Below are positions 651 through 61,526 of a DNA stretch of 64,000 bases, piece after piece (within the stretch, counting starts at the first letter, position 1; every line of letters starts with the position of its first letter). A program made the translations under genes and the position numbers. Source of the DNA: Mustelus asterias (taxonomy: Eukaryota). The DNA lies in assembly GCF_964213995.1 (NCBI RefSeq), contig NC_135801.1, forward strand, positions 145,576,001 through 145,640,000. Direction: 5' to 3'. The notes beneath the pieces were generated by a model, which did no database searches, was not told where the DNA came from, and was given only the letters and a program-made list of their open reading frames with translations.

Positions 651-1097
651 CTTAGTTAAAGCACATGGGATTGCAGGTAATGTCTTGAGATGGATAGAGA
701 GCTAGTTAGCAGATAGGAAGCAAAGAGTTCGCATAAATGTGTCTTTTTCTAATTGCAGTGAGTGACTAGTGGGGTTCTGCAGGGATCTGTGCTAGGATGC
801 AGAGATAGGTCAGCTTGATTTGGACAGCCTGAGTGTGCAGGCATGTGCATGGCAGATGCAGTATATTGTGGATAAATGTGAGGTTATCCACTTTGGTAGC
901 AATAATAGGAAAACAGATTATTACTTGAATAGGTGTAAATTGAGAGAGGTGGATACTCAACGAGATCTTGGAGTCCTCATACTTCATTCGCTGAAAGTAA
1001 GCACGCAGGTACAGCAGGCAGTAAAGAAAGCAAATGATATGTTGGCCTTCATAGCAAGAGGATTTGAGTATAGGTAAAGGACTGTTTTGCTGAAATT

Positions 1098-1410
1098 GTG
1101 GTTAGCACTGCTGCTTCACAGCTCCAGGGTCCCGGGTTCGATTCCCGGCTCGGGTCACTGTCTGTGTGGAGTTTGCACATTCTCCTCGTGTTTGCGTGGG
1201 TTTCCTCCGGGTGCTCCGGTTTCCTCCCACAGTCCAAAGATGTGCGGGTTAGGTTGATTGGCCAGGTTAAAATTGCCCCTGAGATGCGTAGGTTAGAGGG
1301 ATTAGTGGGTAAATATGTGGGGGTAGGGCCTGGGTGGGATTGTGGTCGGTGCAGACTCGATGGGCCGAATGGCCTCCTTCTGCACTGTAGGGTTTCTATG
1401 ATTTCTATGA
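1098..1410 (+). mobile_element. HE1-type tRNA-derived V-SINE, CR1-type tail (tail A), slightly 5'-truncated
   Basis: GTGGTTAGCACTGCTG head, GGTTCGATTCC B-box, TGGAGTTTGCACATTCTCC core, (TTTCTATGA)n tail. Confidence 0.9.
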
Positions 1411-28357: not shown

Positions 28358-29480
28358 ATGAACAACGCGTATAGATGTATAGCCAAAGAAGTATATACCA
28401 TGAACCCGGAGATTACAATGGACAGCATTGGGAATTTGCATGGTGGAATAAGCCATGAGCAATCCACGGGCGATCTGATGAACAGTCACCAGCGGCAGGC
28501 AGTTTCAGCGGCTCACCGGGAACTGACGAGTAGGTCTGCCATGGTTTCCAGCATGGCTTCCATCCTGGACGGGGCTGGGGATTACCGGCCGGAGCTCTCC
28601 GTCCCGCTGCACCCGGCCATGAGCATGGCGTGCGAGTCACCGCCCGGGATGGGCATGAGCAGCACTTACACCACCCTGACCCCACTCCAGCCCCTGCCTC
28701 CCATCTCCACCGTGTCGGACAAGTTCCACCACCACCACCCGCATCACCATCATCATCACCATCACCACCACCACCACCAGCGGCTGGCGGGCAACGTGAG
28801 CGGCAGCTTCACCCTGATGCGGGACGAGAGGGTCTTGCCCGCCGCCATGAACAATCTCTACGGCCCCTACCACAAGGACATGTCCGGGATGACACAGAGC
28901 CTCTCCCCCTTGTCCAGCAACCCCCTGGGGAACGGCCTGGCCTCCATCCACAACAGCCACCAGAGCATCCAGGGCTATGGCTCCAACAGCCACGACAAGA
29001 TGCTGGCCGGCCCCAACTTCGACGCTCACACGGCCATGCTGGCCCGGGGCGAGCAGCACCTGTCCCGGGGGCTGGCCGCCCCCACGGCGGGCATGATGCC
29101 TCACCTGAACGGCATGCATCACCACCATCACCACCACCACGGTCACTCGAGTCACCACCAGTCTCACGGGCCCGTGTTGGCTTCGAGCCGGGATCGGCCT
29201 CCCTCCTCCTCGGGCTCCCAGCCCAACAGCTCGGCTCAACTGGAAGAAATTAATACCAAAGAAGTCGCACAAAGAATCACGGCGGAACTCAAGCGCTACA
29301 GCATCCCGCAGGCCATCTTCGCCCAGAGGGTGCTGTGCCGCTCGCAGGGCACCCTCTCTGACCTTTTAAGGAACCCCAAACCTTGGAGTAAACTTAAATC
29401 GGGTCGGGAGACCTTCAGGCGGATGTGGAAATGGCTGCAAGAACCTGAGTTCCAGAGAATGTCAGCCTTAAGGCTTGCAG
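28358..29480 (+). CDS. ONECUT2: ONECUT2 exon 1 (TP/STP box, poly-His tracts, CUT domain), 1123 nt
   Basis: N-terminus AYRC...MNPEITMDS.G.LHG typical of ONECUT2; TYTTLTPLQPLPPISTVSDKFHHH; CUT domain EEINTKEVAQRITAELKRYSIPQAIFAQRVLCRSQGTLSDLLRNPKPW...; donor GCAG|GTAAGT at 29481; adjacency to ST8SIA3 supports orthology. Confidence 0.95.
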
Positions 29481-32400
29481 GTAAGTCAAGAGCGAACAAT
29501 GCAATGTGGGTCCAGTTTATGAGGGAAGAATTGGTTTAGTTACTGCTACTGAGATAGGGGTGGGGGGGGGGGGGCGGGGGTAACAGTAAGGGTACAGAGG
29601 AACCACAACCATTGCTGTTAATATTTGCTATCCTCTCAGTTCCTCCACAAGGGGATATTGATTGGAGCTGTCTTTTTCTTTGTGGTCAGCTGCACCCGTT
29701 AGCAGCACTGAAAGGTGCTGGTTCTCCATTGCACCCACTGCGGCTCTCACTTCAGCCTTCCCCTTGGTGTGATGTTCGCACAATAGCTCTGTAATGAGGC
29801 AATTCCACATTCCCTCAATGGAAGGACACACCCACAACAGTAACGTGGAACGGCATCAACATCCGATTACCATTCAATTAATGCACCTTAAAATCCACTG
29901 AAGGATATAGCGTTCATTCTCTCTCTCCCCCACCCCCTGTGTTTGATGAACAGCCGTAGTTACACTATGCAAAATCCTAGCCTGTTTAATTCATGAGAGG
30001 ATCACCCCCCCCCCCCCCCCCAAACATACACACATCCTTTGTAACACCGCAGCCTTTATTCTCTTAACTGTTGTAGAGAGATCTGGAATAACTAAAAACA
30101 GACCATTGTTGTCTGCGCCCTCGCTCACGCCTCAGCTCTGCATCGGACTTGAGATATTGGACCGATTTCTCACACCATACGGTTACTTCTCAAAGGCAAT
30201 GGAACGTCTCCTGCAACGCAATTATTTCTTCACAGGATTCTGCCGCTGGGCTTTTTTGTTGTTGTTTTGCCCTGTACAAATGGGTGAAGGAAAGTGTAAC
30301 TAGTCTAAATGCTGCTTCAAGGCTGGAGAAGTTTGCATGGTGCCCAGTGACTAATCCCTGAGCTATTTTGCATCTATTTAAACGAGTAGCTGAGAGAGTG
30401 CAGTGTGATAAGTGAAGGGTCGTTTTGTTGTGGTGAATCTCAGCCATTCAGTGTCAGTGGAGAGTGGGAAGCCGGCGGAATCGCATCTCTGCCCTCTAGC
30501 GTCGGCACTTGCCTCTCCAATCTCAGCCCCTTCCCATTGTGTCTGTTTGAACGCATAAAATTGTATATGTCTGCGGCCAGGGACTGTTTAAGACAATTGA
30601 AGTCAATGAACATTCCTAAATGTAAAGGCCGACCAAGGGCATTTTGCCCCTTAAATCTCCTTTAAGGCTTTATTATACATACCGCCCTACAAAACAAATG
30701 AGTGGAAGTTAACATCTGATTACAATGGGGGAGCATTCATCACGAGAGTTAATTTCATTTCAATATATATGTAGAAAATCCGCTCTTACTTTCCCCCGAT
30801 AAAATATCACCGTCCCGAAACGCACGGCGCGGAGACCAGTCATTTAACCTTCGCGCCCCAGAAGGACAATGGAAGGAGCATGCATTACAATATCTAACTC
30901 GATTGCATGTCTTTATTGGACTGCGTAACGTGATCGCACCAGTGAATATGCACATTCTGAGGAGATAATTCTGTTTTAAATTGAGGGGGGAGCTTGGGGG
31001 GGGGGGGGGGGTGCAAGCAGTGATTCGCGGCTATATTAGTTACCAGCACAGATCAGAGGAAAATGCACCTCAGGTCTGTACGATGTCTTGACTTTTATAT
31101 ATAAGAAAACATGCAGGTATAAACTTCATGCTTATGTTTATTTACCTGAAGAGCATTAACAGCCGTGCATTATAGACACTGTTTGTTTTCATGTCGCCCG
31201 CTGTCAATATCTGCTTGGACAAATCACAGGCGATGTTGGATACCGAGGTCACGTGGTGTAATTGCTGTAATTACTTTTTCCAATTAAACTTGGCTTTACC
31301 TTGTATTTAATTGATAACTGTATCTTGATGCAGTAAGCCACAATACCGCGGTGCACTGTGTGCGTGACTGCCTGCAAACATTTTTTCCCCTTACATTTAT
31401 ACTTTATCATATAATTTACCACAAGGTTAGGAGATCCTTTTATCTTTCTTTAAAAAAAGGGTAAGAAATTTGATTGCTTTTCAAGATTGCAACACATACA
31501 CGGGAGAGAGGGGTGGATATGGAATTATTTTGAACCATTTAGTATGCCCTGCCAGGCAAATATGTTGAGATATTTGAGATCAAAATTGGCGAGTATCACC
31601 GTACTGGAATGAAGTATATACAATGGGTATGTGTAGGTGTTGAGCAACCTGGGTCTGTCTGAATGATGCTGTAGCTATTAGTCTATCTATTCTCCCGACC
31701 TGAAACGGTAGGAGAGACATTTTGAAGCAGTTTACCTATCAAATCGTGTTTCGGATTACATTTTCGTTTTTTTTAAAAGACTAACACTATGATTGCTAAA
31801 CAAACAAAAGCATCAAACCATAAAACAAAGCCACGCATTAGGGGCTGACAGAGAAAATAAAATAACCATACTGCAATTTAGCATTCGCATTTAATGCAGT
31901 TGTGTTACTTGATTGCGCTATTATTAAGGAATTTCGCTCCACAACCCTCGCGATCAATCCTGATTTGAATAATTAAACTGGTTTTTTTTGCTCGGCTGAT
32001 TTGGCATTTGCAGACTGAATCGCAAACAAAAACAAAAGAACAACAACTTGGGCAATGATATATTTTTAAATAGTCCCTCTCATGTGAATCAACCCGCCGT
32101 GGGAGCCGCGTCCATTACCCTAGAATAAACGACTTCAGATGCTGCTGCCCCACCAATGCTGTAGCACGAATCGCAAGGTATATATTCTCACAACACTTCA
32201 TTAACTCCGGGCGAACGCAGAGTAGGAGATTACAAGAGCAAAGGGACAACAACAATTCATCCAGCCCACTTGAGGCGAGCAGAGTGTGAGATCTTCCTCT
32301 AAACGATGTTGCTGCTAATTTTTGAAACATTTTATTTGTTAAAATGGTTTTTTTTGGGGGGGGGGGGGGGCGGTGCCGTAGCTGAGTTCTCCTTTTCTTT

Positions 32401-45256: not shown

Positions 45257-46171
45257 CCTTAAATTCCAAGCGCAATTTTATTTTCCGTGAGCAAAATGAT
45301 ACTAAAAGTAAAGATTAATCAGTCCACCTGTCTTCTTTGCTGTTTGTGAGAATACTTCAACGTGATTGGCTGCTTACCCAATTTGGTGACATCATTGTTG
45401 CTAGCTGCCTGGAAATCTCTTTGACCTGGCCTCAAATTCAAACTAATGCCAGGACAGGGAAGATTCATGGAGACCGCTTTGTGAGCAGCATCCTTCGAGA
45501 TCAGCATTGAGCACCGAAGCTTCACCGCTGATTGCAGAATCTGCACCAATAGGTGTATCACACCAGAACTAGAGCAGTGTGGGAGGCAAGTACGGGGTGT
45601 GGTTGGAGCTAGCCACATTTCCCACTTACGGTGGTTATCTAGTGATTCTTGGAAATTATGCATGTTGGGCTTTAGGAGAAAATAGTATTGGATTTTGGTT
45701 AACAATTCATTGAAAAGTCTGGAAGAGTTATTGCTTACACATTATTAATGGTCAGAGTACCAGAAAGCACTCAACATTCTTAGAGCATGTCCTGAAGCAG
45801 GACTGAGAACCTTTAAAAGAGAAGAAAATAGTTAAAAGAATAAAACAAAACACACAGGGAATGATTGTGTAGTAATCAGTGCACACATTTATTGCAGTAC
45901 TTAGGTTTACCTTAGTGCAGACATGTTTTGCAATCAAACAGTTAGAACACTGGTCAACAAAATAAGTGCCTTGATCATTTCCGTGTTTATTGCCATCAGT
46001 TGATTTCCACTCCACCCTAGACCCCCCTTCCCAAAACGCATTGAGTAATTCTAAACCTCAAATAAATCAATATGATATTTTATGGAAGATTCACTATTGG
46101 AGAAACAAACTAGGGTCAGTCCGTTTCTATAAATTCTCAACATTATTCTCTTTTCTTTTTTTTTATCCCAG

Positions 46172-46464
46172 CGTGTAAACGCAAAGAACAAGAACAGAAC
46201 AAAGAGAAGAGCAATACACCAAAGAAGCCACGGCTAGTTTTCACTGACCTCCAACGCCGAACTCTTTTTGCCATTTTCAAGGAAAATAAACGCCCTTCCA
46301 AAGAGATGCAACTCACGATCTCACAACAGCTCGGTCTGGAGTTGACCACCGTCAGTAATTTCTTTATGAACGCCCGGAGGCGAAGCTTGGACAAATGGCA
46401 GGACGAAGCCATGTCGAGCCCAGGGGCATCATCGTCGACCTCAAGCACTTGTACCAAAGCATGA
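46172..46464 (+). CDS. ONECUT2: ONECUT2 exon 2 (atypical homeodomain, stop), 293 nt; absent from the ORF track
   Basis: Acceptor (T)nATCCCAG|CG; ACKRKEQEQNKEKSNTPKKPRLVFTDLQRRTLFAIFKENKRPSKEMQLTISQQLGLELTTVSNFFMNARRRSLDKW...STCTKA*, with the Onecut F48/M50 signature (FFMNARR). Spliced CDS is 1416 nt = 471 aa. Confidence 0.97.
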
Positions 46465-49400
46465 TTGAGGACAGTGCACCTGAACAGGGCACAACTCAAC
46501 ACCTTTTTTTTTTGCTTTTGACGAGGCTGTTCAGTGGTGAGTGCATAAGCACAATCTTGATCAATACATTCAAACCAATAAAGGGAAGACACATATTTCT
46601 TAATGTGTCTGGCTTAAGATTTCCCCTTGAATCAATTTGGAGTCCTTGCTATAAACTGACAACGAAGCTGAGAGTCTACTTGGTGAATTTCCAGAGATCA
46701 TCAGACATGGCACAACGAGCTATGTTGCTGAGCAATAATATGTCTAGTGCTTTGCCTGAAGAGTTTTAACTGTGCTAAAATAATCATTAGATAATGAGTT
46801 GATTTCAGTTATCAGTTTCTGGCAATGATATGCAGTCATTTTTGATACGGTAAACTAGTACACTGAAAGTAATTGACCGGCCATTTTGATTATTTTTAAA
46901 TAGAAGCCTCAGTAGAATTATTGGAGAACATTTTGTACAATCATGCAATCTCATCACTAACCAGACTGTTTAAGAATGGGCTGTTAGTGGTAAGTATGCA
47001 AGCACAAAATATCAAAGTCATTTTCAGAGACTTTCAGTCCGTCATTAACACAACACAAATCTTGAATGATGCTGGTAAACGTGCCCTCACTGCTATATTC
47101 ACCCATTGGGTGGAGCTGTTGGTGGTGGGAATGCAAGCACAACCTTCAAGCACATTCCTTCTAATCAACAAATTCCTGAGATTTTGTAATACCCATTCAT
47201 GTGGTCTGCTTCATTTTGTTTTCAGAAGATACCAGGGCCATTAGGTTTAGAAGGCAGTTGTTTGCTGCAGGAAGAATAAATACTGTTTGTCTTAATAGCT
47301 GTAGATTACTATGCATCCATTCTATTCAATACTTATATTCTATTTTTGGCCAACACTGGTTTACTACTGCAAACGCACTGAGTAGCCCATGTGTAAAGGG
47401 GTGGGGGGGGGAGGGGGGGGGCTGCCCATGGTGAGTGCAGAAGCACAAACATTAAATAGCTTTATTTTTCCTGAAACGCAACATCATCACCCCTTCTTCC
47501 AACATGTGCACATTCACCACTGAACAGGCCCTCTAAGAACACCATTGATGTGTTTAAAGGCAAGCCAAAGGCTTTAAAGACTCTCGTGAAGACACTTGAT
47601 ACTTTTTTTTCTATTTATTATTAAATCGAAACCAAAGAAACTTTTTTCTGCACCTAATTGTTCTGCAACAAACTTTTAAACAAAAGAAGCACGTCAGGAA
47701 ACAACATACGCACTGTGTTTCAATGGTTGTCTTAGTCGTTTTGGGAAGCAGAGTTACGAAAGGGTTAACAAGAAAAATAACAACAACAAGGGAGCAATGC
47801 CACGGATCATTGCTGCTTCATTTGACGACACTTGCCACCTCTTAAAGTTGAATATTGTCTTTAACGTGTGCCTATGCAGTTTTTCAGAAACGTTGTACAG
47901 AACAACAGAAAACCTCTTCCGCTTCAACCAAAGTCAGCTTCACAGAGACATGGATCTGTTTGTAGTTTTTATGCATTACAGTTGAGTGCTGTTTGCACAA
48001 TTGGCCTGTCTTTCAATGTTCGTCTTATTGAGAGAGGGAAGTACCCACTCGGTTTCACAATTTCCTCCCAATTAGCGATTCCAATGGAACAGGATACCAA
48101 CCAATGGATCCAAATGGCTCCAAGCACAAGATGTTAGGGTGAAGATTAAACACCTCTACCAAAGATAGTAACCCACTCCTATACCTCAGTAAAGGTAACT
48201 AAATATGGGAGGGTTTTTTTTTACTGAATGTTGCATTACATTAGCTACTAAACATTACCATGATCTCAGCCATATATATTAAGCAAGTATTCAACATAGC
48301 CAATGGTTCTACTCAAGTTTGGATAATTTAGGTGAAATATAGCTTTTAATTTGTAATTTTGATGATTTAATCTTTTGTAAATTAATGCATTTCATGCAAT
48401 ATTAATATATTCCAAATTATTTGACTTGTGTTGTTTATCTAGTGTAGTATGTATAAACTTTTTATTTTGAAATGTGATAATTATTTATTTTAAAGATTCA
48501 GATTCAATTGATCCCTAGATTTTAAAAAGTTCACTCTTCATCTTAAGCACAATAGAACCCCCTGGTTATGTTTGTTGGTGAATTTAGTAAATGATTACAA
48601 TAGCTAATACATCAATTGTACTTTAACCTAAATATCTTATGAGTTTCTCATTCATTGATAGACATTTAGCTCAGCGTCTTGTGCATGGAGTCCATGCGCA
48701 CGTCCAAGATGAGTTCAACTTTGAAGAATATCAGGAGTCTACGATAATTTTACAACAAGAAGACAGTGCAGTATTGGTATACTGTAGTCCAATAGCTTTA
48801 TCCAAGCATGTGGAAGCTTTTATCCTTAAACAAAGCTATATCCAAAGAAACCAAACCGATCGGACCAGCAAACTGAAGGTTGACCCCACAGAGAGAATGA
48901 CAGTACTTTCACTGTGTGGCTATTATTGTTTTGTACCAACTCAGCTATTAGAAAAATGCCATATTGTGGTAACAAGTTCAGACAGTTGACAGTGATGTTT
49001 TCATTGCTCGTCACAATACCCACAGGCCGTGTAAATGATTTAATTAACACAAGTTGATTTCTAAACAAGTTAGCAATTTTTAAAGTGCTTGTGACTGTAG
49101 TTTAGAAATCAAAAAGCTACATCAGCTTTATTATTATTTGTATTATTTTTGGTATTTATTGTGAACTATATATTTAAGTGCTGAATTTTCTCTTATTTAT
49201 CAAGTATTAAAATGAAAGTTGCAGTGCTTCAGATAGCCTTTAATCATATTGTCTGTTTTATTTTATAAAGTAACAGAGATTAATTCCTTTAATGTTGATT
49301 TATTTTGTTAGAAAAAATTACAAATTACGACTGGGAGTAAAATTGCACATGCATTGATATACACCTAACACAACTCCAATCCTGTATCCTATAAAATTCA

Positions 49401-52100
49401 TAGAAAAGGTTCGGTGATTTTGGTTTTCAAAATTCTATTAACAGACATTCTTTAGAGTTGAACATTATATTTTTGTGGAAAAACTACCTGAGCCAATATC
49501 CCAACATATTTTAATTATTGATTTTTAGATTTTGGCGCCTTTAAGCACTGCAACTTTTATTCTCAATTTTCAATGCCAAAGAATTATCCCACTATAAGCA
49601 CTGAAAGATATCCCTTCAGTCTTATTATTAATGACATGGATGAGCAATGATTTTAGATGGAACAATACAGTATGTACTGATGAGAACGTGAATACACAAC
49701 AGAAAATACTTTAATGATCTTTCCACCATTGTTTAGCGCTGTGTCCAAATGGCTTTAGATAGCTTCTTTCGATTGCGGAGAAGTCTTTAGCGTTAGTGAC
49801 AAGAGACAGAAAAAAAACCCTGAACTCGCTGCTTCCAGGTATGAACTATGTGTAAAAGCTCTTTCTATTTCTAGTGAGAACCAAAGAGGCTACCTCACTG
49901 AATTTTTCCATTTGTAATTTTAATCGCGTCGATGATACCAAAGATACCAAAGATTTCTTTCTCTGCACGGTCTGCATTTTGCTCCTGCTCATGTATAGAG
50001 TGTCTCTTAAATACAGCTGCAACTCAGATACCCCAAAGATCTAAATGGTGGTCGCACTCATTCAAAATGTGTGTTTTTTCTGTGCTGTAAAAAGATAATT
50101 TCCTCATTAGAATCCATCATCAAGAGGCCAAATATACCATGTCCATTCAGTGTATCAGTGAACAATAATTTTTGGACTTACAATCAATAACTTTTCAAAG
50201 AACAGCTAATGTCACCAGCGCTTTGTTGTATTGTGTTTATTATCAGTATAGGTGCAAATTATGCAGCAGTTTTGATCGGAATTTATGTAAAATAATTTTT
50301 ATTTCACTCTATGGGAATGCTGCTTTATCAAATTCTATGAAACCAAAATGAGTTAAAGCTTCTAAAATAAACCCAGGAATCTCAGCACAAGCTAGGGCCT
50401 GTAATTACTCTCATATTGTAGCAAAGTGAAAAGTGGCAGATATAACTGCTGTGATGTCACTCAAATTCTTTGTTCAGCTAGCACTGTCTGTATGCTGATT
50501 TTGTTCATATGCAATGCCCTTTTAAAATTTTATTATTAACCTGCAATTCCAAATTCCAGCAAGAAAAAACCCTGAAGTTAATATTTTTTAAAAATTGTAC
50601 GCTGAACTCACTACCATTGCATAGGCTCTTCCAGCTGTCCTTTATGATTTATAGAGGAATTTTGGGTCAATTAAAACATTTGTGATTTGCTGGCTGTTCT
50701 AAATAGCGCTATTGTCCCTCTTATATAATTAATCAATAATTATAATTGTACTAACAAGTAATTCAAATTTACTTCATAACAAATGGCACAAGTTTGTTTA
50801 GGGCATTAAATTTCTTTCGATCTACTTGTATAAACTGTACCCTTGCAAATTTCAGTTAATCAGTTTGCTTTTGCAGCACTGGGTGGAGGGGGTGGGGGTG
50901 GACCTCCGCTATGTAATGTTACCAAAGTCATTACATTTTCATTTAGATGAGAAAAAACCTCTCCTGTGCTGTAAAGATTGATTTGCATTCAATTGAATTC
51001 ATACTGTATGTACTAAGATAATACCAAACCAAACCAGTGCCTAGATTGTCTGATGCTTTAGATCTTTATTAGCTGTAACATGCGCACATCATGTTGCATT
51101 TATGAACACACAGAAAAAAAATAAACAAACACACATCCCGAATCAGTCACCACCATTACCAAAATACCTGTACTCAAAAGAAAAACGAAAATCTAGATGC
51201 ACGCTTTAGTTGCAAAGTGTGATAAACCACGGGACGAGTGCCTTGCTTGAACCAAAGCGGTGTTTCTTTCCAGTTTCTAGACCTCTGTGCATTTTTTTAT
51301 TCCTGTGAATACCTCAGCTTCGAAAAGGCCACCAATTTTTTTATTGCTGGTGAGCCCCTATACTGTGGTGCTTTGCAATGCAACCATGCAAAGAACTAAA
51401 CAAAGATACCAAAGTTTTCTCTCTATCTCAATCTCTATCCTCTCTTTCTCTTTAAGATACCAAAGCTTAAAAAAAATCTGATTGAGTAGGTTAGCAGAGC
51501 AGACCGTGCATTCCTTACCGAATTTTCTCAGATATACCTCATAGATAATAGTGTCTAGGGTGATGTTATTATAGCATATGTAATAAATTATTCACTCGTT
51601 TTTTGGTAACTGTGACTATGATATAAAAAAAAGCTTTATACGTTTTAAGTTGTGATTTTTGTAATAGGTGACAGGTGCGCTTATGGAAGGATTGTAAATG
51701 TTTCATGGAATTTGGGGAAGTTGCAGAACGAGCCCAAAGTTTACAGTTTTCATATTCTAAAGAAACAATCCGTTGTTTTTTTTTCCTTTGTGTGTATGTA
51801 TGTGTTTAAAATGCATTTATTTCCACATTGTCCTACATAGATTTATTGACTAATTGTTATGTGTTAAAAATGTAGTGTTAAGATTAGCAACTGCCAGTGC
51901 TATAATTTTATGCATGAGGCTGTATAAATTTAGCAAAGGTGATGCATTGTGATTATTGAGAGTAATATTTTTTAATTTAAGAAAATAGATTTTTTTTTCT
52001 TTTTTTAAAATAGATTTTATTTATGCATGAGAGCCTGTTATTTGTTAGACATTGTGGAACAGTTGTGTATATATTGAACTGTGAAAGCAAACGCAGTTGA
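46465..52100 (+). promoter_or_regulatory. ONECUT2: Probable long ONECUT2 3'UTR (3' end uncertain)
   Basis: Repeat-free, AT-rich, dense in sense-strand miR-218/miR-9/let-7 seed matches; AATAAA at 46577, 47275, 50366, 51120, 51582. Mammalian ONECUT2 has a very long 3'UTR. Confidence 0.6.
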
Positions 52101-53717
52101 ATTGATTACACGGGAAAAGTTGGCGCACAGTGCTTGGGATGGGTTGATGTGTCAATTTTTTTTAAAGAGTCAAAATTAAGACTTACCAGAAACAAAAAAT
52201 CAAATCCTACTCAAAACTGATAGGGTCCTTCAAATCATACTACAGCCACTTACAATGGCTTTCAACAGTTGGACATTATTATAGTGAGAGAACGCATTTT
52301 ACAGATCATGAAAATACCCAAACAGAATTAATTCAGTCATACGGTAGAATTTCTGATGTATGGATGTTTGTAGCTAGAACTCTTGGTCAATCTGATCAGG
52401 GGAGAGGTGATTTTGTTTTGTTATTTATTTGCCAAAGGTGAGGATGGGGTACATAAGTTTTGACCAGAGGAGAGACAGTCAACAGATGCTTGTTCATTTG
52501 TATGCTTTTTTTTTCTCTTCCAGAAATCTATTTGTGTTCTTCCATAGGCCAACGAATGACTCAGTGTATAAAAAATGCACTTCTGATCATTTTTTTCAAA
52601 TTTAGATTGGGACAAGACTGCTGTTTCCAATCTCACTAAATACTTTTAAATCAAAAGGTTTTTTTTCCTTATGATTTTAAAGAAATGATGAACATAAGAG
52701 GAGATGTGAGTTGATGCAAAGATTGTTTCGTGCATTAATCAATACTGAGTGAAAGGGAGTTAATTATTATTGACTAATGCATGCCAGGATTAGTTCTTCT
52801 TTTGCATTTTGCTTAAATCCAATTCTATCGGGCTTCAGTAAACAACATGTGACAGTTGTTGAGAATGCCAGCATTCTACAACTCCAACATTTACAAGAGT
52901 GACTGATTTCAACATTTTTAAAGGTTGCCTAGATGGCTACTTTTCAACCTCTTTGGAAAACACATTGGGGGCAACCTTAATCGCACCTGGCTGTAGGGAA
53001 ACCTAATACATTGGTATAATGGTAGTTTCACACACAGCCTGATTTACTCATTATTGCAGTTAATGAAGAATAATATGGGAGGGGTATGCAACTGACATTC
53101 CACACAACCCTGTACATTTCCCACCTGCTGGAAGAGGTGAAAATTATGCCCATTGTGTCCTACTAGGTATGCTTTTCTGTGCCTTGATCTCTAATGAGTT
53201 CACTACTATACTTATTTTTTCATCCTTTCCAGTGTAAGTGCACATGTACTTCCCTTCACTATTCTTGCGGTTTCCTTCTTTCCAATAATGGTGCTGTCTC
53301 ATGCTGCGGCATTGTTACTCTCCAGGATGTCCCAATTGCATACTTCATGAATGAGTCTAGGTGACAATGCAGACTCCCCTCTGATTCTCTACCTAACCAG
53401 AAGAAGAGTATCTTTTGGTACAGAACGTAAATTTGCAATGTCTGCTTCTTCCTGCAGATGTGTTGATACCATTTGCACATTTGCTTCATAACTTTCCTTT
53501 GCTATTGTTTTCTATTGTTCTTCTGTTGTGTTTTCTATTTCAATTTCAGATTTCTGTTCCTCCCTGTTTGATAATGTCATTGAAACATTTGTGGAATAGA
53601 TTGAGGGGAGGACCCTCAATTTGCCAGAGAAGCAACAATGTGGAATAAAGAGCATGATTCTCATGACACCATGATCAGTGGAATGAAGTCAAGCAAAGCT
53701 CTCTTTGGAACTGTATG

Positions 53718-54218
53718 AGGATGTGGAGGCTTTGGAGAGGGTGCAGAGGAGGTTTACCAGGATGTTGCCTGGTATGGAGGGGAGATCCTAAGAGGAGAGG
53801 CTGAGGGATTTGGGATTGTTTTCGCTGGAAAGGCGGCGGCTAAGAGGGGATCTTATTGAAACATATAAGATGATTAGAGGTTTAGATAGGGTGGATAGTG
53901 ATAGCCTTTTTCCTCTGATGGAGAAATCCAGCACGAGGGGGCATGGCTTTAAATTGAGGGGGGGTAGTTATAGAACCGATGTCAGGGGTAGGTTCTTTAC
54001 CCAGAGGGTGGTGAGGGATTGGAATGCCCTGCCAGCATCAGTAGTAAATGCGCCTAGTTTGGAGGCGTTTAAGAGATCCGTAGATAGGTTCATGGACGAA
54101 AAGAAATTGGTTTAGGTTGGAGGGTCACAGTTTTTTTTTTTAACTGGTCGGTGCAACATCGTGGGCCGAAGGGCCTGTTCTGCGCTGTAATGTTCTATGT
54201 TCTATGTTCTATGTTCTA
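53718..54218 (+). mobile_element. Very young 5'-truncated CR1 LINE
   Basis: RT C-terminus (LFSLERRRLRGDLIETYK...FFTQRVV), (TGTTCTA)n tail; near-identical to 59017-59516 reverse. Confidence 0.95.
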
Positions 54219-54465
54219 TTTCCGAATGAAACAGAAAATTAAAACAAATTGGCCAATTCATGAGGTGACAAGTCTATTTTTGAAGTTATGATTTGGTGCC
54301 ATTCTTACTTCGATGCCAAATTATCATATTAAAGCTGACCCACTCAAATAAACAGAACTGTAGTTTCTAAATTGAGGATTAAACATTATCCTGGTGCTCT
54401 CATGGTGAATCAATGGATACATCTAGCACTAAATAATACCAGCCAGGAAGATCCCAGTCCGATCT

Positions 54466-54789
54466 GGACAGCATGGTGGCACAGTGGTTAGCACTGCTGC
54501 CTCACAGCACCAGGGTCCCAGGTTCAATTCCGGCCTCAGGTCACTGTTGTGTGGAGTTTGCACATTCTCCCCGTGTCTGCGTGTGTTTCCTCTGGGTTCT
54601 CTGATCCCACAGTCCAAAGATGTGCGGGTTAGGTTGATTGGCCATGATAAATTGTCTGTTAGCGTCAGGGGGATTAACAGGGTAAAATGCGTGGGGCTGC
54701 GGGAATAGGGCCTGGGTGGGATTATGGTTGGTGCAGACTCAATGGGCTGAATGGCCTCCTTCTATATTGTAGGGATTCTATGATCCTAT
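54466..54789 (+). mobile_element. HE1-type V-SINE, tail A
   Basis: Head, core and GGGATTCTATGA tail. Confidence 0.88.
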
Positions 54790-55311
54790 AAATCTCTGAC
54801 CTTTGCTGAATTAGCTGATTTCAACTGTGCTGGCAGTTGCGAGTGCCAAAATGAGCCCCACATCAGCCAGTTTCCCACAATTAATCTAGTAACCCTGATA
54901 GCTGAGGAATGAAGGCCCAATCAGGCACGGGTACAATACATCCCCTTGGTCTTGTAGCATAACAACACCAACTGCTAACTTCATATATGTGTTAGGCTCC
55001 AGGGAGAGGCTAGGAGCCATTGAACTTTTGTTTTGCAAGGAAGATAGCCTTCAGGAGTGGAAAGGAAATGGTGGAGAAAAATTGGGGTAAATTTAGGCTG
55101 GAGGCTACATCCAAGGGTTTCCTCCCACCCCCAAGTTGAGTTATCAGTGATGATTTCCAGTGTTTGTCATTTGTAGCAAACTCATAAATGTGTGAATAAA
55201 ACGTATGTCACTACAAATAGTGAATAAAGGAACTAACCTCCAACTAATCTGATTTTCTTCTGGCTGCTTATTTCCTTCTAAAACAGAAGTTTACATAAGA
55301 TACTTAGCTCT

Positions 55312-55557
55312 GATTCTTCATCCAAAGAGTGGTGAGCCTGTAGAATTCATTACCACAGGAGGTAGTTGATGCCAAAACATTGAATATATTCAAGAGGCGG
55401 CTGGATATTGCACTTGGGGCGAATGGGATCAAAGGTAATGGGGAGAAAGCAGGATTAGGCTTTTGAGTTGGACGATAAGCCATGATTGTAATGAATGGCA
55501 GAGCAGGCTCGAAGGGCCAAATGGCCTCCTCCTACTCCTATCTTCTATGTTTCTATG
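55312..55557 (+). mobile_element. CR1 3' end fragment
   Basis: TTCTTCATCCAAAGAGTGGTGAG...GGCTCGAAGGGCCAAATGGCCT...TTCTATGTTTCTATG. Confidence 0.85.
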
Positions 55558-55699
55558 TAGAAGGTCACAAAAAATCTATAACAGTTTAGGTTAAAGCAAA
55601 ACAAAAGGAGGAACGTTAGTTTAGTCTAATAAACAAAGTTTCCTGATAATATCCGAGTGGGATTGCAAATAAAAGTGAAAAAGTAACAAAGGGTTTGGA

Positions 55700-56530
55700 T
55701 ATATTAGGAAATTGATCTGACAAATAGCTGGTGTTGTTTAAGTGGATAAGACTGAGGAAGGGAAACAAGATGTAGTAGGATTATGAGCCAAATTAGATGC
55801 ATGAGAAGGGCCTGGGGCTACTTGCAGTTAATGACCTAAATAAAAAATGGGCATAGTTTGTGGCAAGAGTAAAGAAAGGAAACGTGACTTTAGGTTATAT
55901 AGGCAGAAGGATTAAATCCTTGGAAGTGATAACATATGTGGACAAAGCATACAACTAACTTCATTTGGAATAGCTTGTACAATTTCACATACCATTGGAG
56001 AGGATGCAGTGAAGGGGAATTGATGCCTTCGATTAGCTAAGCTGAGGTTTAAGGAGAGGCAACAGAAACCAGAGACCTTATCGAGGTACTGAAGATTCTA
56101 AGGACAATGGTGCATAGAATAGGTTATGTTAAAAGAGGAAAGCTTCATACATTCACATACTGAACTCAGTGTTATTTTAACAGAGGTATTAACATGTTTA
56201 AATAAATGGGTTAACGTATTAATTAAAATAGTGTACAGAAAATGTCAGGAGAGCTTGTTGAATCATTGTTTGTTAATATCACTAACTGATTGGGCAAGTT
56301 GAATGCTCATAAACATAACCATAAACATTACAGTAAAGATTATATAAACCAAGCTCAGACTTAACAACTTCACACAGATAGTGGTGAATATGTGGTACAG
56401 ATTGTGGGGACAACGAAGGGTGAAAATATTGTAAGTTGAAGAAGAAACTGATTTTATTTGGCAGAGAAAGTGATTGCGATGTGAGGGAAATTGAGTAGTA
56501 TTTCTGGGACTGACTTGATGGATCAGAATG
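55700..56530 (+). mobile_element. Highly decayed CR1-like remnant (boundaries approximate)
   Basis: Weak motifs TTGGAGAGGATGCAG (LERMQ) and GACCTTATCGAGGTACTGAAGATT (DLIEVLKI). Confidence 0.4.
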
Positions 56531-57459
56531 GATCATAACTTAATCAGCTTTGTCTCTTAGACTCAACTAGTGCCTCCTCCTTTTCTTTTACTTTACTCTG
56601 AGTCAAAGTCACTTGCTTTAATATTCTATTTAATATAAACAGTCCTGCATATTACAAAATTCCTGTGGCTCCTGGTACGCACTGTAATGATTGACAGATT
56701 TTTTTTGTGAGCAGCACAAGCACATGATACTGATCAATATATTAAATTCATTTCAACGGATTTTACTTAATGTGTCGAAAACTTAGGTTATGGCAGGTTG
56801 ATTCTGAAAAACGGAACCCTGAAGTGAAGGCAGAAAATAAAATGACATATTGTTACAACTGAAATGATATCCTATCTTTCAGCTTCAAATGCTGTTCAAA
56901 CTGTTGTGTATTTCCCATATTTTAGTAATTTATTGTTTATTAAGCAACTGCATATTTTTGGTGCACCATTGAGCGCAGTAAACCTACTCTGATCCATACT
57001 CGATTAATAAAATAGGAATCCATAAAACAGTATTCTCCAGCTCCAGCTACAATAGTAATTATGCATGGATATCAACTACTGGATAAAACCAGAGGAAAAT
57101 AGATGCAGTGGGTTCAGTATACCTTCAGACCAGTTGTACTAGAATAGATATTTTCTACGTAAAGTTTCACTAAAATGGTCCCAAGTCTAATTATAGCTTA
57201 GTTTTAACTATAATAATGTAATGTTTCTCAGGTGGTCAGTCTGATAATGTCACAGAAGCAATTGTGTAGATTATTTACATCCTCAGTTCACAAACTAGCT
57301 TACAATATTTCTGAAAAGTTTTGGAAACTTAGATCCCAAATGTGATCCAAGAGATCCCACCGTGGACCTCAGCATCCATCTCAGTGACTCCCATTGACTA
57401 TCTGGCTCTAGTAAGAAGTCTCACAACACCAGGTTAAAGTCCAACAGGTTTATTTGGAA

Positions 57460-57496
57460 TCACGAGCTTTCGGAGCGCGGCTCCTTCATCAGGTGA
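57460..57496 (-). ncRNA. Minimal type I hammerhead ribozyme motif (left arm)
   Basis: TCAC-CTGATGA-A-GGAGC(CGC)GCTCC-GAA-AGCT-C-GTGA. Confidence 0.7.
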
Positions 57497-57504
57497 GTGA
57501 TCAC

Positions 57505-57541
57505 TTACCTGATGAAGGAGCCGCGCTCCGAAAGCTCGTGA
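57505..57541 (+). ncRNA. Minimal type I hammerhead ribozyme motif (right arm)
   Basis: TTAC-CTGATGA-A-GGAGC(CGC)GCTCC-GAA-AGCT-C-GTGA; predicted cleavage 3' of C57537. Confidence 0.7.
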
Positions 57542-58388
57542 TTCCAAATAAACCTGTTGAACTTTAACCTAGTGTTGTGAGACTTCTTACCGTGCCCACC
57601 CCAGTCCAACATTGGCATTTCCACATCTGGTTCTTAGTAGATACATTAGTTTAATGCTCAACTTTAACTTGTTTAAATTTTATGAGTAATGTTTGATTAA
57701 AAAAATAAATACAAGGCAAGAGATGGCAGGTTATGTTGAAAAGTTAATTAATAAGTGGATTGCCAAATCTTTTGGGACTTACAGTAAGTTCAGTTGTGAC
57801 ATCAAAAGCTGGTGTATATTGACAGTACTGCTGTTTGATGTCACAATCTTTGCTTCTGGACATGAATCATGAATTCTTGTTATATCCCATAATGACATTT
57901 TAGTTTATTACACTACCAGGAAATCCAATTCTCTTCAAACTCATTACTTTTGTTATTTGATATTATGGAAAATCAAAAATAATCTGAAATATATTAAAAA
58001 TACAATTAAGCATTTAATTGATCTGAAACAACTTTTTGAAATTCTGTCAGGTGAAAGGTCACTGCTAATGTTTTGACTGAGTCTGTTATGGTGTAATTTA
58101 GTCCATTATTATCCCTTGCAGATCAAAATTTTAATAGCTATGTTTATGCCAACATAGTGGAAAAGTGGAGCAACAGTTTCCCAACATATAATTAATTTCA
58201 AAAACTGTTAGCTTTATGCCACAGATTTGGCATCCCATTTATTTATTCGTAAAGGTTTCTTGGACCCAACAGTAATAGAAATTTAGGAGCAACTCAAGTA
58301 CGATTTAACAATAGAATATTTTCTATGATGCCTGCTAAATTTTCAAAGACAATTTTCAAAGCCCATTTCCTGGTCACGGTATGGTCCT

Positions 58389-59016: not shown

Positions 59017-60167
59017 ATAGAACATAGAACATAGAACATAGAACATTACAGCGCAGAACAGGCCCTTCGGCCCACGATGTTGCACCGACCAGTTAAAAAA
59101 AAACTGTGACCCTCCAACCTAAACCAATTTCTTTTCGTCCATGAACCTATCTACGGATCTCTTAAACGCCCCCAAACTAGGCGCATTTACTACTGATGCT
59201 GGCAGGGCATTCCAATCCCTCACCACCCTCTGGGTAAAGAACCTACCCCTGACATCGGTTCTATAACTACCCCCCCTCAATTTAAAGCCATGCCCCCTCG
59301 TGCTGGATTTCTCCATCAGAGGAAAAAGGCTATCACTATCCACCCTATCTAAACCTCTAATCATCTTATATGTTTCAATAAGATCCCCTCTTAGCCGCCG
59401 CCTTTCCAGCGAAAACAATCCCAAATCCCTCAGCCTCTCCTCATAGGATCTCCCCTCCATACCAGGCAACATCCTGGTAAACCTCCTCTGCACCCTCTCC
59501 AAAGCCTCCACATCCTTCCTGTAATGTGGGGACCAGAACTGCACACAGTACTCCAAGTGCGGCCGCACCAGAGTTGTGTACAGTTGCAACATAACGCTAC
59601 GACTCCTAAATTCAATCCCCCTACCAATAAACGCCAAGACACCATATGCCTTCTTAACAACCTTATCTACTTGATTCCCAACTTTCAGGGATCTATGCAC
59701 ACATACACCTAGATCCCTCTGCTCCTCCACACTATTCAAAGTCCTCCCGTTAGCCCTATACTCAACACATCTGTTATTCCTACCAAAGTGAATTACCTCA
59801 CACTTCTCCGCATTAAACTCCATCCGCCACCTCTCGGCCCAACTTTGCAACCTGTCTAAGTCTTCCTGCAAACTACGACACCCTTCCTCACTGTCTACCA
59901 CACCACCGACTTTGGTGTCATCAGCAAATTTGCTAATCCACCCAACTATACCCTCATCCAGATCATTAATAAATATTACAAACAGCAGTGGCCCCAAAAC
60001 AGATCCCTGAGGTACACCACTTGTAACCGCACTCCATGATGAATATTTACTATCAACCACCACCCTCTGTTTCCTATCCGCTAGCCAATTCCTGATCCAA
60101 TTTCCTAGATCACCCCCAATCCCATACATCTGCATTTTCTGCAGAAGCCTACCATGGTGAACCTTAT
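59017..60167 (-). mobile_element. Very young 5'-truncated CR1 LINE with uninterrupted RT C-terminal frame
   Basis: ORF 59119-60195: GVPQGSVLGPLLF, KFADDTK, KCEVIHFG, LVRPHLEYCVQFWSP; (ATAGAAC)n tail. The ORF start lies in flanking DNA. Confidence 0.97.
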
Positions 60168-61526
60168 GTGAGAATATAAAAGTTCGCAGGTTCAAAAATC
60201 GACAAATTATTTATTTCAAATTATGATCAATTTATGAAATGTTAATCTGGTGCTGTGATGTAATTTTGTCCCATTTATCTACAAGTATTAGCTTCACAAT
60301 TTATGCTCACATTCAAATTTTAAAGTGAGTAGATAAAGTCACACAAAATCATATTGTCTGGCGAAATCAGTTTTGTGGACTATCCAAACATTTGTAAAAT
60401 GTTCCCATGTTTTTGGACAAGAGCAGCCCTATGCACAATTCATCAAAAATTAGGCCGTAGCTTTACTACGCTAGGTGCAATCTTTTCCTAACCATAGGGT
60501 CAAGCACCAGTGCATTATCCCATGCTCCAGAGTTCAAGAACTTCAAGCAAATTATGCCAAAATGGGGAAAATTGTACATCCTGAGAACATTAAAGTCAGC
60601 TGGGCACCTGAAATTGGTGTTGAAAGCTGTGGGTTCAGTATCTCAAGAGGGCATCTGGCCACTGTGGACTGTGTAAATTTAACTCCTGATATTTTGGTGC
60701 CATATCTCTGTGTGGATTTGAAAAGTTACTCATTGTATACCTTTGCATTCAGGAAGCATTCAGAGTTTAATAATTTCTGGAGAACCGTGTTAATCACTAA
60801 ACAGACGCAACCAAATTTAAACTAAGCATAATTCCAGGAAACAAGTACTAAATCTTTATTCATTAACTTAAATATTTATTGTAGTTTCTAACCATTATCC
60901 AGATGGATAAAGGTTTACTCTGAGTGTGTGTTTTGGTTTTCTATTTATCTCTCCTGTCCTAACAGCAATAGTGGTTCTTTCTGGATTATAGAACCGTGGG
61001 CACCAGGAGCTTTCTGATGCCTTGGCCAATGCTGTTTAAGATTAGCTTTGCGCTGACCAGAGATTGAAACTGAAATATTCCTGATTTGAATGACTCAGTA
61101 AATATCAGATTGCATCTCTGCCAATTAAGCCACCAAATGTGCTCCGGGTGTAGGTTTATGTCAATGATGTCACTGTACTGCAGTTTTTACGGCTCACTTG
61201 TTAATAGGTTCAACCAAATATGAGTCATGTTGGTTCCTAGAATTCAAAATAATAAACAGAGCTTTTGATTTCAATCGGGGTTCAAAATGAGTGATATTGG
61301 ATTGGTCGTGCGTAATGCTCCCCACCAATTTCCCTTTCTAATCCAACGTCATCTCTTTTGCATGGTTGCCAAAGTTGAAAGTTCCATATTTATGGGACAT
61401 AACATTTTGAAGATGACTGTGCTTTGCGATATAACCAAAGCTCAAGCATTTAAAATAATTTTCTCAGCTCCTGATATAGCTGAATCGAACAGTTATAACT
61501 TTCAAAGTTGTCTTTCATGGCCAACA

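Follow-up and report, generated by a model that had tools for sequence, protein, structure and literature searches.

The window, i.e., the whole 64,000-nt stretch of DNA analysed here, carries an alpha-2,8-sialyltransferase gene and, after it, a CUT-homeodomain gene whose exons lie at about 28358-29539 and 46171-46464. The genome holds three CUT-homeodomain last exons of this type, one in the window and one each on contigs C24 and C26. The C24 gene has its best match in HNF6/ONECUT1 (153.5 vs 124.4 bits), while the closest matches of the C26 gene are shark proteins and its best mammalian matches are mostly named ONECUT3. Scores against solved structures alone, tried as a discriminator between ONECUT2 and ONECUT1 for the exon of the window, were indecisive (140.5 vs 135 bits) and were set aside. 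The gene is called ONECUT2 because it shows the diagnostic ONECUT2 residues in the alignment, by elimination against the two paralogs, and because of its sialyltransferase neighbour, in keeping with ONECUT2 synteny. Three miR-9 loci were found in the genome, and the mature miR-9 sequence was read from genomic locus L012; the miR-9 genes L013 (C24) and L014 (C26) share their contigs with the ONECUT1- and ONECUT3-type genes, at distances of 6.5 and 13.5 Mb.

The element described here lies 3.5-5.1 kb past the ONECUT2 stop, in the presumed 3′ UTR (Table 1). Between 46465 and 58000, miR-9 7mer-m8 matches number ten on the + strand and none on the − strand, and a block in common with the C26 gene (52021-52084) suggests that the UTR extends beyond the 3′ arm of the element; the human OC2 UTR is 14.6 kb long (PMC10356556, section 3.1). 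From these three observations we infer that the element is transcribed.

Table 1 Features of the ONECUT2 last exon and 3′ UTR in the window. Helices are predicted; positions count from the first letter of the window.
Feature	Position	Strand	Basis or detail
Last coding exon of ONECUT2 (homeodomain, stop)	46171..46464	+	residues, elimination, neighbour gene
Module A, upstream pair: miR-9 8mer then let-7 8mer	49880..49897	+	4/4 homologues, a-84 to a-58
Module A, tandem miR-9 8mers (end 10 nt ahead of the 5′ arm)	49937..49953	+	tandem in 3/4, single in ONECUT3-type
Long-range helix, 5′ arm: 10 conserved outer nt, with a gene-specific inner part	49964..49991	+	pairing and homologues
miR-9 7mer-A1 site with extended 3′ pairing	50011..50039	+	-20.9 kcal/mol; no counterpart seen in the other three
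Predicted second helix, 5′ arm, which would close off the ONECUT2 insert	50044..50089	+	-32.2; 8/400 random region pairs as good
ONECUT2-specific insert, about 1-1.1 kb, between modules A and B	50090..51105	+	AATAAA 50366, miR-9 7mer-m8 50921
Predicted second helix, 3′ arm, AATAAA 51120 in internal loop	51106..51157	+	predicted fold
Module B: conserved blocks, miR-9 7mer-m8 (51251, 51408), let-7 7mer-A1 (51310)	51210..51414	+	homologue alignment, site map
Module C, miR-9 7mer-m8 a short way ahead of the 3′ arm	51459..51465	+	b-46 to b-63 in 4/4
3′ arm of long-range helix	51483..51510	+	pairing and homologues
let-7 7mer-A1 seed match 23-24 nt after the helix	51535..51541	+	4/4 homologues
Downstream block common to window and ONECUT3-type (C26) UTR	52021..52084	+	81% over 64 nt, E 1e-10

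A reading of the letters alone, hereafter the sequence-only reading, had described a 26-bp duplex between the two long-range arms, and the duplex was found as described, with 12, 6 and 8 pairs, two 2-nt bulges, two G-U pairs and an energy of -41.0 kcal/mol. G-C pairs make up 15 of the 26, and the helix spans 1547 nt. In model-based global folds, among them one of 1846 nt, the predicted pairing probability of the core is near 1.0; equilibrium pairing probabilities across 1.5 kb run over-confident. On a common seed-and-extend score the helix reaches -37.3, which makes it the third strongest long-range duplex of the 6.2-kb UTR. This score was matched by the best duplex of the shuffled UTR in 0 of 52 whole shuffles, and in 1 of 40, 1 of 105 and 2 of 40 shuffles in blocks of 200, 100 and 60 nt, i.e., in 4 of 237 altogether; equally strong duplexes are thus uncommon in shuffled sequence, and p is about 0.02 for the helix on energy alone. 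Each arm's best alternative partner among 6146 UTR windows is 13-15 kcal/mol weaker than the cognate one. Since the helix is only the third strongest duplex of its UTR, with a p of about 0.02, conservation provides the stronger evidence.

The same UTR contains further strong duplexes at 46522-46554/47504-47534, 48113-48144/48664-48696 and 49210-49239/49533-49562, scoring -40.3, -37.5 and -33.3, for which no match to the paralogs was seen. None of 105 shuffled UTRs had a fourth-best duplex of -33.3 or better, and the whole UTR therefore looks folded by a series of long helices. In the C24 UTR, positions 575-609/3964-3996 form a duplex of its own (-40.6) that spans 3.4 kb and ends shortly before the cassette of seed matches described below.

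On the claim that the helix lies in unique sequence, a genome DNA search with 49860-50160 gave three matches, namely the region itself and its two paralogs, and no sign of a repeat origin of the arm region, but this search skips repeats and is no proof of rarity. Rfam covariance models, which are unlikely to include a helix closing a 1.5-kb loop, gave no match at E<=1 against 49930-52700. Elsewhere in the window, 57411-57590 is a 90-bp inverted repeat, 97% perfect and without spacer, in which a short interspersed repeat probably stands twice, head to head, and near-identical LINE reverse-transcriptase fragments at 53720-54200 and 59119-60210 stand in opposite orientation about 5 kb apart and could form long dsRNA if transcribed through.

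Four sequences were compared: the ONECUT2 of the window, the ONECUT1-type gene of C24 and the ONECUT3-type gene of C26, all three from one genome, and L011, the sole locus from a scan of metagenome contigs. L011 is an ONECUT1-type UTR from another vertebrate and shares 81-82% identity with that of C24 across stretches of 480 and 246 nt. Both arms are present and complementary in all four, with spans of 373 nt in C24 (minus strand, about 19535318 to 19534946), 1926 nt in C26 (minus strand, about 29533227 to 29531302) and 521 nt in L011. Helix energies in this comparison are -43.3 (window), -42.8 (C24), -42.5 (L011) and -28.3 (C26), and three of the sequences share a helix of about -42 kcal/mol and 26-28 pairs. 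Across the four sequences the outer 10 pairs hardly vary, with one U-A/C-G swap and one A.C mismatch. The swap is an aligned compensatory change at pair 8, where the window and C26 have U-A and C24 and L011 have C-G, with both sides changed; the mismatch is at pair 7 of C26. There, near 29533221 (minus strand; L003), an A stands opposite a C where the other sequences have G-C, and as a speculation A-to-I editing would restore the pair.

The inner arms behave differently from the outer pairs: ungapped, only 4-7 of 18 letters (5′ arm) and 2-10 of 18 (3′ arm) are common between sequences. Inner pairing is nonetheless best with the sequence's own partner in the window, C24 and L011 (-20.1, -20.7 and -21.7), against -7.0 to -18.6 for the 12 swapped combinations, whereas the inner 5′ arm of C26 pairs less well with its own partner (-13.8) than with the arm of C24 (-17.5). 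With the core held fixed, UTR segments taken as inner 3′ arm matched the observed energy in 0 of 1223 cases for ONECUT2, 5 of 831 for ONECUT1, 6 of 881 for L011 and 25 of 1349 for ONECUT3, and shuffled inner 3′ arms did so in 3, 51, 43 and 197 of 5000, in the same order. In seven of eight scans over all UTR windows no partner beats the cognate arm; the 5′ arm of C26 falls short by 0.1.

Of the checks that the sequence-only reading had proposed for the helix, co-conservation is found in the paralogs and in L011, and compensatory change is seen as one aligned double change beside one mismatch and gene-specific inner helices in three of the four sequences, four being the whole set. As the inner helices are not alignable and only one aligned pair covaries, this is not formal covariation. 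It does argue for selection on pairing, because the inner arms diverge yet stay complementary within each gene and the pair-8 swap is compensated. The RNA helix has thus very probably been under selection since before the ONECUT duplications, and the two arms likely pair in the mRNA as a helix of roughly 26 bp.

Not every part of the element speaks for structure. The six outermost pairs are invariant in 4/4 and thereby uninformative, as the two hexamers could be sequence motifs. The arms as a whole might accordingly be conserved motifs, either inverted DNA enhancer sites or single-stranded RNA-protein sites, whose pairing is incidental; the invariant hexamers, the ONECUT3-type mismatch and the occurrence of as strong a duplex somewhere in 4 of 237 shuffles would all fit, as would antisense pairing that is stronger than sense pairing in two of the four sequences. 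An inverted motif does not, however, predict inner arms that diverge and remain complementary in three of four sequences, or a compensated swap at pair 8, and we consider this explanation decidedly unlikely. The antisense comparison also qualifies the sense-strand specificity that had been read from the G-U pairs: it holds modestly in ONECUT2 (-41.0 sense vs -34.4 antisense) and holds in C24, but is reversed in L011 and C26, so that strand bias is ruled out as proof of RNA-level selection.

The helix is embedded in a cassette of microRNA seed matches. With the seed motifs of miR-9 and of let-7, miR-9 matches lie at 49880, 49937 and 49946 (8mers), 50033 (7mer-A1), and 50921, 51251, 51408 and 51459 (7mer-m8), and let-7 matches at 49890, 51310 and 51535. 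This map agrees with the earlier placement of the 5′ arm between the tandem miR-9 8mers and the extended site, and of the 3′ arm after the miR-9 matches at 51408 and 51459 and before a let-7 match. The conserved miR-9 and let-7 matches are on the sense strand. In all four homologues the miR-9 8mer or 8mers end 7-11 nt ahead of the helix, and where in tandem they start 9-10 nt apart. This fixed spacing between helix and sites in long-diverged genes is the main reason to connect the two. Module B is less constant: the ONECUT3-type copy of C26 keeps its first part, and the seed matches there are degenerate. Immediately 5′ of a miR-9 site, a block at 51230-51260 is retained in 4/4 homologues and may be a region of miR-9 3′ pairing or another factor's site. 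A scan for the motif pattern of module B gave no hit in prokaryote genome contigs or viral contigs, which is uninformative.

At the extended site (50011-50039) the seed is joined by 5 central pairs and by 8 pairs with the 3′ end of the miRNA, and the target has a 7-nt bulge; the other 21 miR-9 sites range from -7.5 to -14.9. The architecture of the extended site resembles that of a trigger of target-directed miRNA degradation.

Modules A, B and C are contiguous in the ONECUT1-type copies, ONECUT2 has its insert between A and B, without any match to the paralogs except low-complexity runs, and the ONECUT3-type copy has about 1.5 kb between B and C. Parsimony therefore suggests a compact ancestor with two independent expansions: the ancestral cassette would have been compact as in ONECUT1 (about 370 nt), ONECUT2 and ONECUT3 later gaining kilobase inserts at different places. 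The second helix of Table 1 and a candidate closing helix of the ONECUT3 insert (-29.0; 28 of 352 random pairs as good) are weak, post hoc predictions of structures that may close off these inserts. An extra predicted helix at 49991-50000/51283-51292 was rejected, being absent from the confident helices of the ONECUT1-type copies.

The loop also contains the poly(A) signals (50366, 51120) whose use, according to the sequence-only reading, would act as a switch by which a silencing hub of clustered sites is lost. That proposal finds no support: both AATAAA lie in the ONECUT2-only insert, the motif occurs 17 times on the + strand and 24 times on the − strand of 46465-58000, and the predominance of full-length human OC2 mRNA (PMC10356556, section 3.1) also runs counter to it. 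Much the same evidence bears on the broader notion that the helix controls 3′ end formation, by suppressing poly(A) signals in the loop or by presenting one just downstream. AATAAA does occur at b+35/36 in both ONECUT1-type copies and at b+72 in ONECUT2 (51582), and 3′ ends are enriched inside conserved complementary regions, as reported in the available text of PMC8052449; yet in-loop AATAAA positions are not common to the copies, the shark ONECUT1 loop has none, none lies within 120 nt downstream in the ONECUT3-type copy, and the lack of sense-strand enrichment and the mostly full-length human mRNA (PMC10356556) weigh here as well, leaving this notion highly improbable. In the ONECUT1-type copies this AATAAA (L002, about 1090-1110, minus strand; L011, 3638-3643) closely follows the let-7 match, and ONECUT2 has none at the homologous position; a short ONECUT1 isoform may end with the cassette.

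The favoured reading, possible though still short of probable, is that the helix is a clamp that compacts the miR-9/let-7 cassette and aids microRNA repression. The helix would hold the ends of the cassette together and keep the sites close, making site geometry independent of loop inserts. At the outer end of the helix the tandem miR-9 site would come to face the let-7 site downstream, with the inner miR-9 sites set off by about a helix length; the two sub-clusters could be linked by multivalent AGO-TNRC6 complexes. The 23-24 nt ahead of the let-7 seed correspond to about one Argonaute footprint. In three predicted folds, the last tandem miR-9 match is 15, 38 and 38 steps from the downstream let-7 match, and the nearest inner miR-9 site is 57-64 steps away. 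These distances describe two sub-clusters, not one; the single silencing hub of six miR-9 and two let-7 sites envisaged by the sequence-only reading was thus overstated, while the co-conserved helix adjoining seed matches stands. Folding models with the 5′ arm blocked gave site distances that were not longer overall, many pairs being as short or shorter, and seed accessibility barely changed except at one ONECUT1 site (0.56 to 0.16). As minimum-energy folds compact any RNA, the distance comparison has little power, and it gives the clamp no support either.

The opposite effect, i.e., a helix that dampens silencing by packing the cassette so that miRISC binds without efficient repression, as a sponge or buffer, finds an argument in work on human OC2. 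In the available sections of PMC10356556, bulky structure is proposed to block RISC, full-length OC2 being miR-9-resistant and fragments of 0.8-3 kb sensitive; endogenous human OC2 is reported resistant to miR-9 (section 3.3), which speaks against the clamp as well. The tandem 8mers of ONECUT2 are indeed predicted to be mostly paired (0.21-0.26 unpaired). Their low accessibility is, however, the same with the arm blocked, that of the tandem site in the ONECUT1-type copies is 0.50-0.58, and the helix hides no sites directly, because the arms contain no seed match. The structure invoked in PMC10356556 is a whole-UTR model and apparently not this helix. Dampening is therefore quite unlikely.

A real helix could also serve as a platform for Staufen or another dsRNA-binding protein and in this way compact the UTR and determine its stability, localisation or translation, with the miRNA sites kept independently. 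Its constant length of 26-28 pairs at about -42 kcal/mol in three sequences, the invariant outer pairs as a possible protein contact, and at least three more strong duplexes of the UTR without this cassette at their flanks are compatible with such a role, and STAU1 favours long-range duplexes in 3′ UTRs that have about 20 pairs, in some cases over kilobases, and are tied to lower decay (PMC10164587, in the text available). The STAU1 duplexes tend to be AU-rich, symmetric and bulge-free, a tendency and not an absolute rule, whereas this helix is G+C-rich with bulges, and a platform leaves the fixed spacing of seed matches in 4/4 homologues unexplained; it appears rather unlikely.

Returning to the clamp, its fullest form would be a single RNA-structural module, older than the vertebrate ONECUT triplication, that physically brings the silencing complexes of miR-9 and let-7 together over as much as 1.9 kb, with helix strength and loop inserts setting each paralog's miR-9 threshold and hence the timing of ONECUT shut-off in neurogenesis; this we regard as a doubtful extension. 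That three paralogs retain a long-range helix in the 3′ UTR is of note regardless of what it does. MicroRNA cooperativity is modelled on linear distance, and the ONECUT helix would be a natural case of structural bridging, in a series that offers natural loop lengths of 0.4-1.9 kb and strengths of -28 to -43 kcal/mol. In neuronal temporal patterning miR-9 has key targets in the ONECUT factors, and ONECUT2 also acts as a cancer driver. All three ONECUT genes are known miR-9 targets, the OC factors being predicted targets and OC2 3′ UTR fragments being repressed by miR-9 (bioRxiv 10.64898/2026.10.02.755877, as far as its accessible text goes). The literature is split on the sensitivity of full-length OC2 to miR-9: if the arms and sites do work as one module, reporter fragments separating the arms would misreport regulation, and fragment reporters that split the arms make the conflict testable.

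A full-text literature search, with subscription papers largely outside it, found no description of the helix, which genome-wide catalogues may list unnamed. The term "onecut" is not in the accessible supplement files of PMC8052449, which may not hold the full catalogue, was not found in the accessible supplements of PMC11310781 and PMC11255127, and is absent from the available text of PMC6836737.

Several known systems resemble parts of the element, here compared through the accessible parts of each source. The ONECUT2 3′ UTR has itself been treated as a miR-9 target with many conserved sites, with structure invoked and a sponge proposed (PMC10356556); that account offers a computed whole-UTR model (Fig. 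S2E) and shielding, "hub" there being a network figure, as opposed to a specific helix, a paralog comparison and compensatory change. Conserved complementary regions (PMC8052449) likewise show long-range complementarity under 10 kb, and compensatory change, of which the ONECUT helix has one aligned case, but that catalogue concerns conserved intronic regions and pre-mRNA processing, in contrast with the terminal-exon element of ONECUT. The duplexes of the Staufen1 hiCLIP atlas (PMC10164587) are, like this helix, intramolecular 3′ UTR structures of 20 or more pairs spanning hundreds of nt to kilobases, with compaction proposed; unlike them, the ONECUT helix is G+C-rich and bulged and is kept in three paralogs with seed matches at fixed spacing. 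In cooperative miRNA clusters (PMC1874663, PMC3849160) several close seed matches act together, as those of the cassette may, and structure as a means of bringing distant cooperative sites together has already been voiced (PMC3849160). The optimal spacing of cooperative sites is 13-35 nt (PMC1874663), below which the tandem miR-9 8mers fall at 9-10 nt; and while the known clusters are linear, at 13-35 nt, the ONECUT cassette would be bridged by a specific conserved helix over 0.4-1.9 kb.
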